This document shows, in pieces, positions 26,728-36,290 of a DNA stretch of 64,000 bases (position 1 is the first letter of the stretch; each line of letters starts with the position of its first letter). The stretch comes from Candidatus Omnitrophota bacterium. Its GTDB lineage: Bacteria; Omnitrophota; Omnitrophia; Omnitrophales; Aquincolibacteriaceae. A model generated the notes under the pieces. It saw only the letters and a program-made list of their open reading frames with translations. It was not told the origin of the DNA and did not search any database. The stretch is from assembly GCA_022709525.1 (NCBI GenBank), contig JAKLIQ010000001.1, positions 78,709-142,708 on the forward strand, written 5' to 3'. Both the position numbers and the translations under genes were made by a program.

Positions 26728-27344
26728 CAAGTGGATACAAAACTCAAGTCAGACATAGCAGAAAGTGCCGTTCTTACCCGGCTTTTGAAAGAGGGATTTA
26801 GAGTTCTTAAACCCGTAGGCGACAGGTTGCCATACGACCTGGCCTTGGACATGGGTAAAAAACTTTTCAAGATCCAAGTCAAAAGCGCGTGGGGCAAGGA
26901 CGGCATCTACAATGTTGACAGCCGGCGGACCAAAACAAACCGGCGGAAAATGTTGCGAAGTCGTTATGCTGAAGACGACTTTGATTTTGCTGTGTTGTAT
27001 ATTGAGGATCTCGGTATTTTCTATGTGATGCCGCGGAATGTTTTTGATTCTTATAAAAGCGGGATCAGAATTGTAGAAAAGATCACAAGGCAGAGAACGC
27101 CGAGATCCGGAAAATATCGCGAAGCTTGGGATTTGTTGAAAAGGGCCGCTTAACCGGAAACGGTTAAGGCAACACCTGTCAAACTCGGTGAACCCTGTCA
27201 GATGGGAATACCGAACCAAGCCTTACGGATCGTTCGTGAGGAAGGCGTAGAGACTAGACGGCAGGCACCCGAAAAGGTGAAGGTATAGTCCAGACTACAA
27301 ATCTGCCAACAGCAAGGCAGAGCGGTGAAAACCGTAGTAGGATG
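26728..27344 (+). mobile_element. Group I self-splicing intron (IC3-like) carrying an ORF
   Basis: The 3' 200 nt contain gtcaaactcggtgaaccc and gaaggcgtagagactagacggcaggcacccgaaaagg, then ggtatagtcc. These match the conserved P3/P4/P6/P7 core of the Azoarcus tRNA-Ile intron as recalled. P9-like hairpins follow, ending in a terminal G. Confidence 0.75.
26731..27153 (+). CDS. Intron-encoded putative homing endonuclease, 140 aa, possibly PD-(D/E)xK-type like I-Ssp6803I of the cyanobacterial tRNA-fMet intron
   Basis: The ORF fills the peripheral 5' part of the intron. Motif LPYDLALDMGKKLFKIQVKS is PD-(D/E)xK-like. Its GTG start lies 3 nt after the 5' splice site, so the true start is uncertain. 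Confidence 0.5.
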   Translation: MDTKLKSDIAESAVLTRLLKEGFRVLKPVGDRLPYDLALDMGKKLFKIQVKSAWGKDGIYNVDSRRTKTNRRKMLRSRYAEDDFDFAVLYIEDLGIFYVMPRNVFDSYKSGIRIVEKITRQRTPRSGKYREAWDLLKRAA

Positions 27345-28981
27345 CATAACCCAAAGGTCGCAGGTTCAAATCCTGCCCCCGCTACCATCTGTACTGGAGA
27401 AGAAGGCTTTGGGATCGGGTACCACCCGACCAAAGCCTTTTTTTCTTTGGGGAGAATTCGCACGGCGCCGATATAACGGCGGATAAACGCTTTCTTTTCG
27501 CCTACGGACGCTTCTTCCGTGAAGATCTGATCAAAGTCCCTGATCCCGCTCAAAACCTCGCGCGAGGCCTTTTCCAGGTCGATCCTCGTTTTCGAATTAG
27601 CCTTCAAGCTCACGATCTCCACTTCAAGCCTTTTCTTCTCTTCGCTCAAGACGGTGATCTTCCGGTTCAAAATGACCTTATGCTCCGGGTCCACAGTATC
27701 CAGCAGGTCGTCGATCTTTTGGTTGATCGCCTTAACCCGCTGCTCAAGGGCGTTTATTTCCAACGCCGGGTTTTTAAACTGCTTGTCCAGTTCCGTCCGG
27801 ATCTCGCCCAAAAGCTCCTTGTAAGGATTTTCTTCACCCAGACGATTCTTGATCCCTTGCAGGATATGACCCTCAAGCCGATGGCTCGCAAAAGAAAAGT
27901 TTTCGCAAACAGCATTGCCCCGGCTCCAGAACCCGCCGCACGTGTACGAGTGGGTTTTGATCTTTTTCGAATTCGTCCTCGTGGTCCCGAAATAAGTGTG
28001 GCCACATCTGCCGCAAGTGATCAGTCCCGAAAGAAGATAATTTGAAGTGGTCGCCCGTCCGCTGAACTGGCTCGGGAACTTGCTCCGGCCCTTTCGCTTC
28101 TCCTGCGCAGCAAGCCACAAGTCTTTCTTGATGATCACAGGATACACATTCTCTTTTACGAACCATTCCGATTCCGGGTTATGTTCGATCTTTTCCTGCC
28201 GGAGCCTCGGCTTCTTCTCCGCCTGGCCGTTCCTGACCGAATGGAATTTGCTCAAGGTCCTCCGGTTCCAGACAAAGGCGCCGTAGTAGATCGGGTTCAT
28301 CAAAAGAGAACGGAGACAGGAAATCGTCCATGTTCCGCCGCGAGGCGCAGGAATCCCCTCTTGATTCAGCGCGTCCGCGATATTCCTGTAGCCCATTTCT
28401 TTCCGGGCGTAGCTTTCAAAGATCCTTCGAACAACAGCCTGTTTTTCGGCGCTATCAAGGATAAGCGAGGATTTTCCGTTTTCATTGACGATCCGTTTGT
28501 AGCCGTAAGGAACCGGGCCGCCGAGAAATCGCGCTTCTCTCGCGCAAGTGACTTGTCCGCGGATGGTGTCCCTTGAAAGACTTTTCAGATAAAGATTCGC
28601 ATTGAACTGAAAAACCGGGCGCAGGATCTCGTCCATATCATCGCCTTTAAGATTTTCTTTTACATAAAGGACCTCGACACCCGCATTTCTCAAGATGTGC
28701 AGGTAATAGCCGACCTCGATATTGTCGCCGCGGCTAAAACGGGCAATGTCGTAAGCGATGATCAGATCGAACGGCCGTGTTTTTTCCTGGGCCGCCAGAA
28801 CCATGGCCTGAAACTGGCTCCGGTTTTCGGAGAACGCTCCGGAGATCGCATCATCGGCATACCAGCCGGTCATTTCGAATCCTTCCCGTTTCGCAAAAGA
28901 AAGGATCTCGCGTTTCTGGTCTTCGAGGGATTGTTCTTGTTTGTCCGTGGAACGTCTGAGGTATCCGACCGCTTTCTTCAT
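27254..28981 (-). CDS. Large serine recombinase (resolvase catalytic domain, recombinase domain, zinc ribbon, coiled coil)
   Basis: VGYLRRSTDKQ catalytic-serine motif; about 575 aa; RBS aggagg precedes ATG 28981. The C-terminal 45 codons run antisense through tRNA exon 2 (the AGAGFEPAT translation), so the true stop is probably upstream of 27388. Confidence 0.8.
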   Translation of the reverse strand: MKKAVGYLRRSTDKQEQSLEDQKREILSFAKREGFEMTGWYADDAISGAFSENRSQFQAMVLAAQEKTRPFDLIIAYDIARFSRGDNIEVGYYLHILRNAGVEVLYVKENLKGDDMDEILRPVFQFNANLYLKSLSRDTIRGQVTCAREARFLGGPVPYGYKRIVNENGKSSLILDSAEKQAVVRRIFESYARKEMGYRNIADALNQEGIPAPRGGTWTISCLRSLLMNPIYYGAFVWNRRTLSKFHSVRNGQAEKKPRLRQEKIEHNPESEWFVKENVYPVIIKKDLWLAAQEKRKGRSKFPSQFSGRATTSNYLLSGLITCGRCGHTYFGTTRTNSKKIKTHSYTCGGFWSRGNAVCENFSFASHRLEGHILQGIKNRLGEENPYKELLGEIRTELDKQFKNPALEINALEQRVKAINQKIDDLLDTVDPEHKVILNRKITVLSEEKKRLEVEIVSLKANSKTRIDLEKASREVLSGIRDFDQIFTEEASVGEKKAFIRRYIGAVRILPKEKKALVGWYPIPKPSSPVQMVAGAGFEPATFGLCILLRFSPLCLAVGRFVVWTIPSPFRVPAV

Positions 28982-29227
28982 GATGACAGGCCTCCTTTCA
29001 GGCAGGGATCGAAAGCGCCAGCCCGGCGCTTTGATCGAGAAACGAATAATACACCCGCCGTCAAGTGGACGGAAGCCGTTCGCCCTTTCTGTTTTGCTAT
29101 CCAATGCCGAACCAGCCATTGCGCAAGCATAGCTAATGAGCCGTTCCGGGCATATTCCGGAGGCGGCTCGGGCATCTCAAAATCTTCGATGGTCAGATCT
29201 CTGGATTTATCAGCTCTATCCCGATCC

Positions 29228-30061
29228 TTATGTGCAGGATGGATCAGAGACAGCACCTCCCTTGTAGCGTTTATAGCGCTGTTTATAAAACTCTTCTTTC
29301 TCAAACCGGCGGAGTTCTGCTTCCGCCTTGTGGATTTCGTCGTACTCGTCAACGAAGTCCTCATCAAACTCAAGATAATTGTTCAAAACGAGTGTGCTGT
29401 TCTTTTTGTTGACGAAAGTTGTTTCTCCTTCGCGTCTGAGCAGTTCCTCCATCGTTGCGAAATAGAAACACTCCGGACAATGTTCAAGTTTCTTGAACCA
29501 CTCGATCATCGATTTTCTTTCCACGAGATAGAGAAAGGCGCTGATGCCCTCGTTTTTGACCCAGGTATCTATGAGCACCCGATCATAATACCGCTTACTC
29601 TTCAGCGTCCGTTCGATCTCGATCACAAAACTGTGTTTTCGGCCATCATCAGCCAGGCCATCCGGGACCTTTCTCCGTTCCGTCTTACTTTTCAACACGC
29701 GCTCAGATGTCCAGATGAGCCCCGGAGAACGCTCTAGGATAATACGCGCATCCGTGACCCAAACATCGTGCTCGTAGATTTTCAGGTCCACTCCATCCAG
29801 CGGTCGTAGTCCGTTCGACAGATCCAGGCTCCTCAGGTGCTTTACGCCTTTGGCGGTCGTGAGATAAAGCGTGTCATGACCGACCCTTGGCTTCACGGCT
29901 TTCAAATAACCCTGTCGCATCAGGAGATTCACTCTTCTTGCCGGGACCTTGTACATGCTCAGGCTCTCGGGGAAGAACTTCTTGGCGATATGCCTCAGGA
30001 GCAGAAACTTCTGCTCAAGGCACATCTTCAGGATCTCCGAATCTCTTTCTGTAATGATCAT
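29228..30061 (-). CDS. Hypothetical protein with N-terminal winged-helix-like region (possibly replication-relaxation family)
   Basis: N-terminal helix-turn-helix-like region ILKMCLEQKFLLLRHIAKKF...LMRQGYLK and an acidic C-terminus. It lies in the recombinase island. The family assignment is a guess. Confidence 0.3.
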   Translation of the reverse strand: MIITERDSEILKMCLEQKFLLLRHIAKKFFPESLSMYKVPARRVNLLMRQGYLKAVKPRVGHDTLYLTTAKGVKHLRSLDLSNGLRPLDGVDLKIYEHDVWVTDARIILERSPGLIWTSERVLKSKTERRKVPDGLADDGRKHSFVIEIERTLKSKRYYDRVLIDTWVKNEGISAFLYLVERKSMIEWFKKLEHCPECFYFATMEELLRREGETTFVNKKNSTLVLNNYLEFDEDFVDEYDEIHKAEAELRRFEKEEFYKQRYKRYKGGAVSDPSCT

Positions 30062-30235
30062 CCGCTACTTGTTCCTTATCTGATTTCGTGAGAGACATAT
30101 TAAAAATTGATCTGACGGTGGAGCGATCTGCGTCGTGTCATTTTTGTGATCTTCAAATCTCCGGTACTTCTTGGGCTTTAGCGCCGTGTTAGCAACCAGG
30201 CTTTAGACTGGTCTTGGTTTTTATTTATAATTTCA

Positions 30236-35691: not shown

Positions 35692-35712
35692 TTAATCGAG
35701 ATGGTTAGGTCC

Positions 35713-35950
35713 ACGGTTTCAAACCGCAAATTCTCCTCGGCCCAATATTTCGCGAAATGTTCCCCACTTTTCCGGATTTCACGCTCGACGGCCCGATTAA
35801 GAACAGATATAATCACCCAGCTGTTTTAGGGAAAATTTCAAGGTGGGCTTAAGAGGTTCTTACGGGCTGCGGACGGGATTGCGGGGAAAGATCAACGGTT
35901 TCAAAAGCGAGAGCTTCCTCGGTCCAGTATTTGGCGAAATGTTCCCCCGC
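35713..35950 (-). pseudogene. Two diverged copies (35713-35768 and 35893-35950) of a decayed coding fragment. Minus-strand translations are ...EHFAKYWAEENLRFET... and ...EHFAKYWTEEALAFET...
   Basis: A 56-nt direct repeat whose differences are concentrated at codon third positions when read on the minus strand. Neither copy has a start codon or a long ORF. Confidence 0.4.
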
Positions 35951-35962
35951 TACCAATTGAGA

Positions 35963-36000
35963 AACCCGCCAGGGATTTATTCCTTGGCGGGTTTTTCTTT
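35963..36000 (+). terminator. Rho-independent terminator
   Basis: aaacccgccagg-gatttattc-cttggcgggttt followed by tttcttt. Confidence 0.6.
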
Positions 36001-36290
36001 ACGGCGGCTGTACCATCGGTAAAAAACTTGCCTAGTCGGCTTGCTTTTTGGGGGTTCATCAGGTAGCTTTCCGCCATGGTTTAATCCCGCTAGCTTTTCC
36101 TGGGGAAAATCCAGTTAAACCTTGCAAGAAAGTGCTCATGAAGAGGATCACGATCTTTCTGTTTCTGCTGGCAGTTACCTACGCCTTCGCGGCTCTGGCA
36201 TTTGCCCACTAAGAGCTAAAACAAGCGATCTTTTAAAAAGGACAGGTAATGGAAACTTGCCCATCCTTTTTTGCGCTTCGGGCCATTCCT

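Follow-up and report, generated by a model that had tools for sequence, protein, structure and literature searches.

An 8,568-bp island at positions 27388-35955 of a 64,000-nucleotide stretch of contig JAKLIQ010000001.1 from a Candidatus Omnitrophota bacterium (the whole stretch is called the window below) is very probably an 8.6-kb integrative element that its own large serine recombinase (LSR) inserted into the 3′ end of the gene for the initiator tRNA, tRNA-fMet. An earlier note on this DNA had proposed such an element, inserted at the tRNA 3′ end by a serine recombinase, and the proposal is borne out by the uninterrupted site of a related genome, by the composition of the island, by a recombinase-tRNA junction that recurs across the recombinase family, and by searches of Pfam, NCBIfam and PHROGs that found no tyrosine integrase in the island.

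Borders of the island and the uninterrupted site

The island is bounded by an exact 12-bp direct repeat, CCCCCGCTACCA. Its left copy (attL core, 27376..27387, forward strand) is the 3′ end of the tRNA, and its right copy (attR core) lies at 35944..35955 on the same strand; these are the only two matches in the 64-kb window, where 0.18 matches with one mismatch or fewer would be expected by chance. Beyond the right copy lies the displaced native terminator of the tRNA (35959..35997, forward strand; inverted repeat I7 plus a T-run), which is chromosomal and marks the end of the island. The borders were set, along the lines that the earlier note had suggested, by comparison with a related genome lacking the island. 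This genome, L006, is the closest other species in the genome collection (UvrB 87% identical), and it is the one genome from which the uninterrupted site is known. Its tRNA-fMet (13984-14060) has no intron and is directly joined to the sequence that is found to the right of 35955 in the window: window positions 35944-35996 are 98% identical to L006 14049-14101, which comprise the last 12 nt of the tRNA and a 41-nt terminator region. Because exon 2 of the tRNA and 35944-35996 are contiguous in L006, the 8.6 kb lies between two parts of one sequence.

These borders differ from those first drawn. The island had been started at 27254, which is corrected to the tRNA 3′ end (27376/27388). No clear direct repeat had been recognized, and a far border had been considered near 36090 on a weak resemblance to the tRNA end; that candidate is ruled out by the exact repeat at 35944-35955, 140 bp to its left. 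In place of the long tRNA duplicate expected at the far border, the repeat measures only 12 bp, and the crossover probably takes up only 2 bp of it. L006 was also seen to hold a further, partial tRNA 3′ end (ATCCTGCCCCCGCTACC) at 14285-14301, 240 bp past the tRNA and followed by another terminator; another integration event at this tRNA probably left it as a scar.

The interrupted initiator tRNA gene

The target gene is itself interrupted, as the earlier note had recognized, by an intron. Exon 1 (26694..26727, forward strand), which lies outside the element, is 97% identical to the 5′ half of the L006 tRNA, and exon 2 (27345..27387, forward strand) is 100% identical to L006 14018-14060; the last 10-12 nt of exon 2 are supplied by the element. 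The gene was missed by a standard ARAGORN scan and by Rfam at gathering thresholds. When introns were allowed, ARAGORN recovered a 617-nt intron, and the same interval (26728..27344, forward strand) matched the Rfam model Intron_gpI at 45.7 bits (E = 3.9e-10), just below the gathering score of 50 for group I introns. The end of exon 1 would fall at 26727 under the group I rule (U before the 5′ splice site). Within the intron lies an open reading frame (ORF) for a PD-(D/E)XK homing endonuclease (26731-27153; PF11645, PDDEXK_5, 1e-38). Joining the exons yields an intact 77-nt tRNA-Met(CAT). It has a C1xU72 mismatch, and its anticodon stem holds three G-C pairs; by these two features the predicted spliced tRNA is an initiator. 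An intron was observed at the same tRNA position in two more distant groundwater relatives, L098 (about 11597-12600) and L106.

The large serine recombinase and its overlap with the tRNA

The gene next to the tRNA (27254..28981, reverse strand) encodes 575 aa in its integrated form. The mechanical ORF (27254-29119, reverse strand) would give 621 aa; the start was placed at M47 according to homologues and NCBI gene calls. Pfam identified Resolvase (PF00239, 6.7e-21), Recombinase (PF07508, 4.2e-26) and Zn_ribbon_recom (PF13408, 4.4e-10) domains, and the protein matched PHROG 95, 'integrase', at 6e-91. Ser11 and Arg9 of the motif YLRRSTDKQ and the zinc-ribbon cysteines Cys323, 326, 348 and 359 are invariant in 23 homologues. 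In an AlphaFold2 (AF2) model, paired helices (406-428 and 432-461) and return strands (504-520) form a predicted coiled coil that is inserted in the zinc-ribbon domain. The best Foldseek matches were the SPbeta, Bxb1 and PhiC31 integrases (E = 1e-18 to 1e-21), at 15-20% identity to solved serine integrases. Pfam, AF2 and Foldseek thus agree with the earlier description of a 575-aa LSR beside the tRNA with the YLRRSTDKQ motif, a zinc ribbon and a coiled coil. Judged by its sequence, the protein is a true LSR, and it is very likely the integrase of the island.

Only 27388-28981 of the LSR gene is element DNA. The last 44 codons come from exon 2 and the intron: as had been noticed before, the frame runs antisense across exon 2 (27345-27387), where it reads …VAGAGFEPATFGL…, and its stop codon (27254-27256) falls inside the intron. 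The same arrangement was found repeatedly in the family. A tRNA-antisense peptide forms the C-terminal end of 20 of the 120 database homologues. Among 69 evaluable metagenomic loci, defined as those where the end of the LSR ORF could be read, the stop codon lies inside an antisense tRNA in 31 (26 Met-CAT, 4 Leu-CAG and 1 Glu-CTC), and tRNA-like tails were seen at four further loci, at two of which the tRNA contains an intron. Homologues at 65-90% and at 30-45% identity end in …VAG-AGFEPATFGL, …VGFEPTTFGL, …RGFEPLTSRL or similar peptides, each directly followed by the stop. Relatives down to 28% identity repeatedly have the 3′ end of the gene in an antisense tRNA, with the junction at the same VAG codons, and none of the homologues has a stop before the junction. 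The usual stop is a TGA opposite the anticodon loop (TTA TGA, from CTCATAA). Because the intron removes this TGA, the LSR ORF in the window runs 30 codons into the intron.

The overlap extends to cultured bacteria and to other tRNAs. In Paracoccus ferrooxidans pFER4 (L238) and Novosphingobium resinovorum pSA1 (L239), a 28%-identical LSR ends in …VKMVAGVGFEPTTFRL and a stop inside tRNA-Met(CAT). That tRNA-Met (about 5595-5671) was seen to lie downstream of a tRNA-Ile/tRNA-Ala pair, ~3.5 kb away and on the same strand; the pair is taken to be the putative end of an rRNA operon. In L114, L122, L129 and L136 (tRNA-Leu CAG) and in L152 (tRNA-Glu CTC), the LSR tails read …HAEGGI or …LRGIEPRFGG, then stop; the presence of Leu and Glu subgroups in the family indicates that target switching has occurred. 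With this recurrence, the overlap of the LSR gene with a tRNA reads as a family trait and not an accident. LSRs 66-72% identical to that of the window, in L086/L099 (1740-3200), L090/L101 and L092, are followed after VAG/LAG by non-tRNA sequence with no symmetric attachment site; in L086, the next genes after the LSR junction encode a Replic_Relax protein and a primase-like protein. These loci may be junctions with elements stacked at the same site. In the viral collection, relatives of the LSR were only distant (≤33% identity), so that they give no evidence for a phage nature of the island.

Reconstructed attachment sites of the island and of two comparable elements

Joining the island ends, as in a circular form, gave CCAGTA-TTTGGCGAAATGTT-CCCCCGCTACCA-TCTG-TACTGG, a 42-bp dyad that would be the element's attachment site (attP). 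Its arms are CCAGTA at 35924-35929 and TACTGG at 27392-27397, and it is centred on the CC that opens the repeat, tRNA positions 65-66, at the boundary between T stem and acceptor stem. The crossover dinucleotide would accordingly be placed at the CC of 27376-27377. The attP junction read from the joined ends is …CCAGTATTTGGCGAAATGTTCCCCCGCTACCATCTGTACTGG…, and the empty chromosomal (attB) junction would be …AAATCCTGCCCCCGCTACCAATTGAGAAACCCGCC…. Such an attP has the architecture expected for a serine integrase, and the repeat that remains would rebuild the tRNA.

Far-end repeats were sought in about 30 other loci and were convincing in L098 and L111 only. The L098 element (11.5 kb), which lies in a tRNA with an intron, has a 9-bp repeat, TAGCGGGGG, and a 71%-identical LSR; the L111 element (10.4 kb) has a 15-bp repeat, ATGGTAGCGGGGGCA, and a 44%-identical LSR. 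At the far end of each, host terminator, core and an element arm with an in-frame tail were found together. The three reconstructed attPs, CCAGTA-N30-TACTGG in the window, CCAAT-N32-ATTGG in L098 and GTAAGT-N24-ACTTAC in L111, share the same CC/GG centre. Matches of 10-11 nt in L119, L130 and L239 were considered as far ends and set aside, as they look like chance. At about 60-115 of L098, the host tRNA-fMet does not encode its CCA (…CCCCCGCTAATC…) and the end supplied by the element does, so that integration there alters how the tRNA 3′ end is made.

Exchange of the C-terminal tail

The right-end arm of the island (P′, 35849..35943, reverse strand), which contains CCAGTA, holds a short coding sequence that joins the LSR frame once the element is circular: the frame passes from …QMVAG into the right end as EHFAKYWTEEALAFETVDLSPQSRPQPVRTS, followed by a stop. 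An inner, degenerate copy of this arm (35688..35771, reverse strand; repeat D2, 78% identity) has the core AGTGGGG and encodes (KSG)EHFAKYWAEENLRFETVDLTISIN and a stop, and the far end of the L098 element encodes a homologous tail, EHFEKYWREDALEFEEVELK, also with a stop. When the tail copies are compared in the LSR frame, synonymous changes account for 7 of 10, 7 of 13 and 4 of 11 differing codons. The other frames of the same strand have at most one synonymous codon, except for three in one frame of the inner and L098 pair; one frame of the opposite strand reaches 5 of 13. We conclude that the gene contains attP, and that in the excised form the tail is translated and under selection. With attP inside the 3′ coding region of the LSR, integration swaps the C-terminal tail of the protein. 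In the AF2 models the excised-form tail has a pLDDT of 53-69 with a helix and a strand, and the tRNA-derived tail a pLDDT of 26-32.

What the swap does is a matter for conjecture. We put forward tentatively, as a rather unlikely proposal, that the LSR gene is split by its own integration, with a separate isoform encoded in each of the element's two states, the circular one ending in a tail of helix and strand that is under selection, EHFxKYWxExxLxFExVxL, and the integrated one in a disordered antisense-tRNA peptide. If the tail affects synapsis or directionality, for instance by being needed for integration or by blocking excision, it would be a built-in sensor of the integration state.

Breaks of several independent assemblies were noticed to cluster in this region: two contigs end at 35856 (L003, L005), two start at 35859 (L244, L245) and one starts at 35875 (L246). 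The spot sits between the inner and outer right-end arms, and the shared breaks could come from low coverage or population heterogeneity.

A hairpin embedded in the recombinase gene

A hairpin with a T-run, TTTTTTTCTTT, lies at 27397..27449 on the forward strand and starts 10 nt past the CCA of the tRNA. On the other strand, the same bases encode EKKALVGWYPIPKP of the LSR, which takes in the last strand of the zinc-ribbon domain. The hairpin (inverted repeat I8) has a folding energy of -36.1 kcal/mol over 75 nt. It covaries among 12 relatives: both sides change in 11 of the 16 pairs, and 83% of hairpin cells are paired, versus 24-56% when the partners are slid by 1-3 columns; none of 500 shuffles reached the observed value. 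In members at ~35% identity and in Paracoccus and Novosphingobium the sequence is unrelated, and a hairpin is found again at the same place, often with a T-run. The hairpin is probably a replacement intrinsic terminator for the tRNA, which would shield the element from read-through. In L238 and L239, a classical GC-rich terminator was seen embedded in the coding end of the LSR.

Composition and gene content of the island

The GC content of the island is 45.3%, compared with 53.7% and 53.6% in its flanks, so that the lower GC noted at first reading holds, and its tetranucleotide correlation to the flanks goes down to 0.43-0.48. The drop in GC is uneven: the LSR and its neighbouring gene have 51.0%, the Fic gene 51.1% and the block from the PLD gene to the 158-aa ORF 39.3%. 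The compositional shift, likewise, is strong at 32.1-35.7 kb, and in the recombinase module and the Fic gene it is weak. At 50000-64000 of the window, GC was again seen to be lower (47.7%) and tetranucleotide correlation reduced (0.67-0.80); this block may be another accessory region.

The gene that accompanies the LSR (29228..30061, reverse strand) encodes a 277-aa MobC/replication-relaxation-like protein; it had been described as a winged-helix protein, in place of which the match obtained was to NCBIfam MobC_subf, a weak one (2.9e-8, below cut-off). Homologues of this protein (28-91% identical) are encoded directly upstream of the LSR in L087/L104, L098, L106, L090, L100, L097, L105, L107 and L109. 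The iteron-like repeats reported earlier are borne out as three ~75-nt direct repeats (30240-30312, 30406-30478 and 30515-30587; families D1 and D3) in the intergenic space beyond the MobC-like gene; they are a candidate cis-acting site, as iterons or as an origin of transfer (oriT). The repeat region is in part 73-90% conserved in a variant element, L105, whose core is 88% identical and whose cargo is different. A 21-nt inverted repeat (90% complementary, 15-nt loop) was observed in the same intergenic space at 30857-30913, in a stretch that is 90% conserved in L105; it is a further candidate cis-acting site (oriT or replication origin).

Next come the genes that appear to be cargo. A class II-like Fic protein (31114..32151, forward strand; PF02661, 2e-14; PADLOC SoFic, 1.2e-37) has the Fic motif HPFRDGNGRVSR and an N-terminal inhibitory SNRIEG, in keeping with its earlier assignment to class II, and the L098 element carries a 48%-identical homologue. 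The secreted PLD nuclease of the first description is confirmed as a small PLD-family (NucT/DrmC-like) nuclease (32187..32723, forward strand; PF13091, 4.8e-29) with an HKD motif and a signal-peptide-like N-terminus; the NucT and DrmC models match it below their cut-offs. The motif AATGGTATA was seen three times just upstream of Fic (31027-31072) and again upstream of the PLD gene (32135-32179), and it looks like a shared operator or promoter element. Four ORFs of 256, 227, 288/305 and 158 aa, where three uncharacterized genes had been counted, follow at 32760..35691 (forward strand) in the block of lowest GC (39%); they had no family match in Pfam, NCBIfam, PADLOC or PHROGs.

With PADLOC, the island showed no complete known defence system; SoFic and DrmC, the models matched by Fic and PLD, are single-gene models. 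PHROGs returned the integrase and families of unknown function only, with no phage structural, packaging or lysis genes, and Pfam and NCBIfam identified no relaxase or type IV secretion system genes, the weak MobC-like protein and the three repeats being what was seen. As phage, relaxase and secretion genes are lacking, we call the island a small integrative, possibly mobilisable or plasmid-like element. Outside it, uvrB (24614-26632) lies upstream of tRNA-fMet, and core-like genes resume beyond the far border as the earlier note had stated, with a TIGR04073 protein (a 36%-identical paralogue is encoded at 6963-7301) and then MurB. An anaerobic-digester metagenome contig and metagenome-assembled genomes labelled Candidatus Omnitrophota match the window.

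A model of the integration, and its alternatives

The observations can be assembled into a model. The circular element would carry the ~42-bp attP (CCAGTA-N30-TACTGG) inside the 3′ coding end of the LSR gene; the LSR would pair this site with the tRNA gene, and strand exchange would take place at the CC of the T-stem/acceptor-stem boundary. Since attP holds CCCGCTACCA beside the crossover, the 3′ end of the tRNA would be rebuilt and the 12-bp direct repeat left behind. The native terminator would thereby be moved 8.6 kb away, and the hairpin and T-run antisense to the last structured residues of the LSR (KKALVGWYPIPKP) would substitute for it and stop tRNA transcription from entering the element. 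Integration would also part the LSR from its last ~31 codons, left at the far end, and its ORF would continue into the antisense tRNA; the stop is normally the TGA opposite the anticodon loop, and here the intron would remove it and add 30 codons.

Several observations weigh against this model or limit it. L006 shares the tRNA and just 41 bp beyond it, the genes further downstream being different, so that the 'empty site' is short and comes from a single genome. The island is present in every same-species contig that covers the site; in these contigs, which come from six or more samples or assemblies, its identity is 99.98-100%, and no empty site was found in the same species with identical UvrB, MurB and TIGR04073 proteins as probes. 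Neither an excised circle nor an attP junction came to light, also when viral contigs were scanned for an exact match, and no circular contig occurs among those with non-tRNA tails. With no excised form, and with the island in all contigs covering the site, mobility in this population is unproven, and present-day mobility can only be presumed. The hairpin was not listed by a consensus terminator scanner, owing to its internal bulge; folding and covariation are the evidence for it. Three close homologues (P0003, P0006 and P0011) end in non-tRNA tails that do not form a symmetric attP. These tails had been considered as attP forms and were rejected because the dyad partner is missing on reading; they may be junctions with other elements. 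Finally, an inner copy of the right-end arm is present at 35688-35771, which means that the history was not one clean insertion.

Of the alternatives, the one that survives best accepts insertion by the LSR and holds that the island is now a fixed remnant whose excision was lost, for example through the intron-extended tail or through loss of a directionality factor. We consider this a serious possibility, somewhat short of an even chance. The uniform presence of the island in the same-species contigs fits it, as do the missing circular form and the lack of a recognisable directionality factor. Against it, the LSR ORF has kept its full length and every catalytic and zinc-binding residue, neither att core has a mismatch, and the tail-coding arm is intact.

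A composite or tandem history is unlikely, if clearly not negligible. Here the inner, degenerate site (about 35760-35771) would be the right end cognate to the resident LSR; the outer 184 bp, perfect repeat included, would have been left as a stub by an earlier, related element, and the tRNA would have been entered twice. The two 59-nt copies of the right-end arm (78% identity), with the tail frame kept in both, are what this history would leave; the extra partial tRNA copy 240 bp downstream in L006 indicates that the site is reused, the non-tRNA tails of close homologues could be junctions with other elements, and SCC composites with internal repeats offer a resemblance. It is, however, the outer arm whose CCAGTA exactly partners the island's own TACTGG, whereas the inner arm reads CCAATA beside a degenerate core (AGTGGGG), and attL is not expected to serve as a target for a serine integrase, as is established for the family.

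It is highly improbable that the island is a classical tyrosine-integrase tRNA island that lost its integrase and in which the LSR, a resolvase or invertase, is a passenger. Direct repeats at tRNA 3′ ends are a hallmark of tyrosine integrases, and tRNA or tmRNA (t(m)RNA) genes are rare sites for serine integrases (14 of 297 elements in PMC7192596). Yet the island contains no tyrosine recombinase or remnant of one, dozens of diverged relatives, with three tRNA species, share the codons at which the LSR-tRNA junction falls, and attP is a dyad centred on a dinucleotide in the style of serine integrases. Least probable of all is that there was no insertion, and that an ancestral block, low in GC through its gene content, was deleted in the sister lineage: the uninterrupted site is indeed known from one related genome only, with different downstream synteny, but the precise 12-bp repeat lies exactly at the borders with the tRNA 3′ end duplicated and not deleted, the tetranucleotide shift is strong, and the same LSR module occurs elsewhere with different cargo. 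Integration by the island's own LSR remains the reading that we carry forward.

Discussion

For the insertion of large DNA, serine integrases are the principal tools, and most of the natural targets catalogued for them are protein-coding genes. To our knowledge, an initiator tRNA is present in every bacterium. The LSR of the island belongs to a broad group found habitually at tRNA 3′ ends, in Omnitrophota, in groundwater and sediment metagenomes and in cultured Alphaproteobacteria. Its junction is precise and conserved, and the group offers universally conserved natural attB sites, together with a testable case of an integrase C-terminus that would depend on the integration state. The end of the LSR gene is also a compact case of protein coding on one strand and a putative terminator on the other. 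The homologues on Paracoccus pFER4 and Novosphingobium pSA1 could serve as experimental models, and Fic, the PLD nuclease and the small unknown proteins are marked as horizontally acquired cargo.

Among known systems, PhiC31, Bxb1, SPbeta SprA and A118/LI have the same domain order (catalytic, recombinase, zinc ribbon with an inserted coiled coil) and the same fold as the LSR, and the attP reconstructed for the island would likewise be a short, imperfect dyad with a central dinucleotide. Unlike these PhiC31-type integrases, whose targets are a protein gene or intergenic, the island targets a tRNA gene and restores it, and its attP lies inside the integrase's own ORF. The Ccr enzymes of SCCmec are serine recombinases that insert at the 3′ end of rlmH, keep the gene intact and leave direct repeats longer than the crossover. 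CcrA/B/C thus resemble the island in combining a serine recombinase, the 3′ end of a conserved gene and flanking repeats, and CcrB is the best NCBIfam match of the LSR (3.9e-41). At 141 bits this match is far below the cut-off of 900, and the LSR is therefore not a Ccr. The island differs from SCC in its tRNA target and in having a single recombinase and no pair; the SCC recombinase, moreover, is not split by integration.

An attP inside the integrase gene is known from IntP of the myxophage Mx8 and from archaeal integrases of the SSV type, in which integration alters (Mx8) or splits (SSV) the integrase, and in Mx8 the new 3′ end changes the behaviour of the integrase (PMC6070905, PMC4383910, PMC7253208). 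Those enzymes are unrelated tyrosine recombinases; the island exchanges only ~31 C-terminal codons, with serine chemistry. If the isoform switch considered above is true, it would give an unrelated enzyme family its equivalent of Mx8 IntP/IntX, with the same bases serving also as the tRNA terminator. Classical tRNA islands, which use tyrosine integrases (Islander/TIGER), are alike in tRNA 3′ insertion, a restored gene, a displaced fragment and an adjacent integrase; they are unlike this one in the integrase family, in the repeat, which is 9-15 bp in the three elements mapped here, and in the 2-bp crossover that we infer.

Closest in target are reports of serine enzymes at tRNA genes. They are bioinformatic: the 2020 TIGER survey, with its 14 t(m)RNA-associated elements, called this use of tRNA genes by serine integrases previously unreported and asked for experimental proof (PMC7192596), and a Paracoccus prophage (phage vB_PamS_Pami6) with a serine recombinase is predicted at tRNA-Met(CAT) (PMC6536676). 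As far as the accessible portions of these two papers go, they describe the tRNA association only, with no attP within an ORF, tail swap or embedded terminator; and, unlike the vB_PamS_Pami6 prophage, the island is small, non-phage and in Omnitrophota. tRNA goes unmentioned in the main text of a large-scale LSR survey of 2022 (PMC10083194). Set beside all of these, the LSR of the island is an under-described, tRNA-targeting variant of the serine integrases whose gene spans attP.

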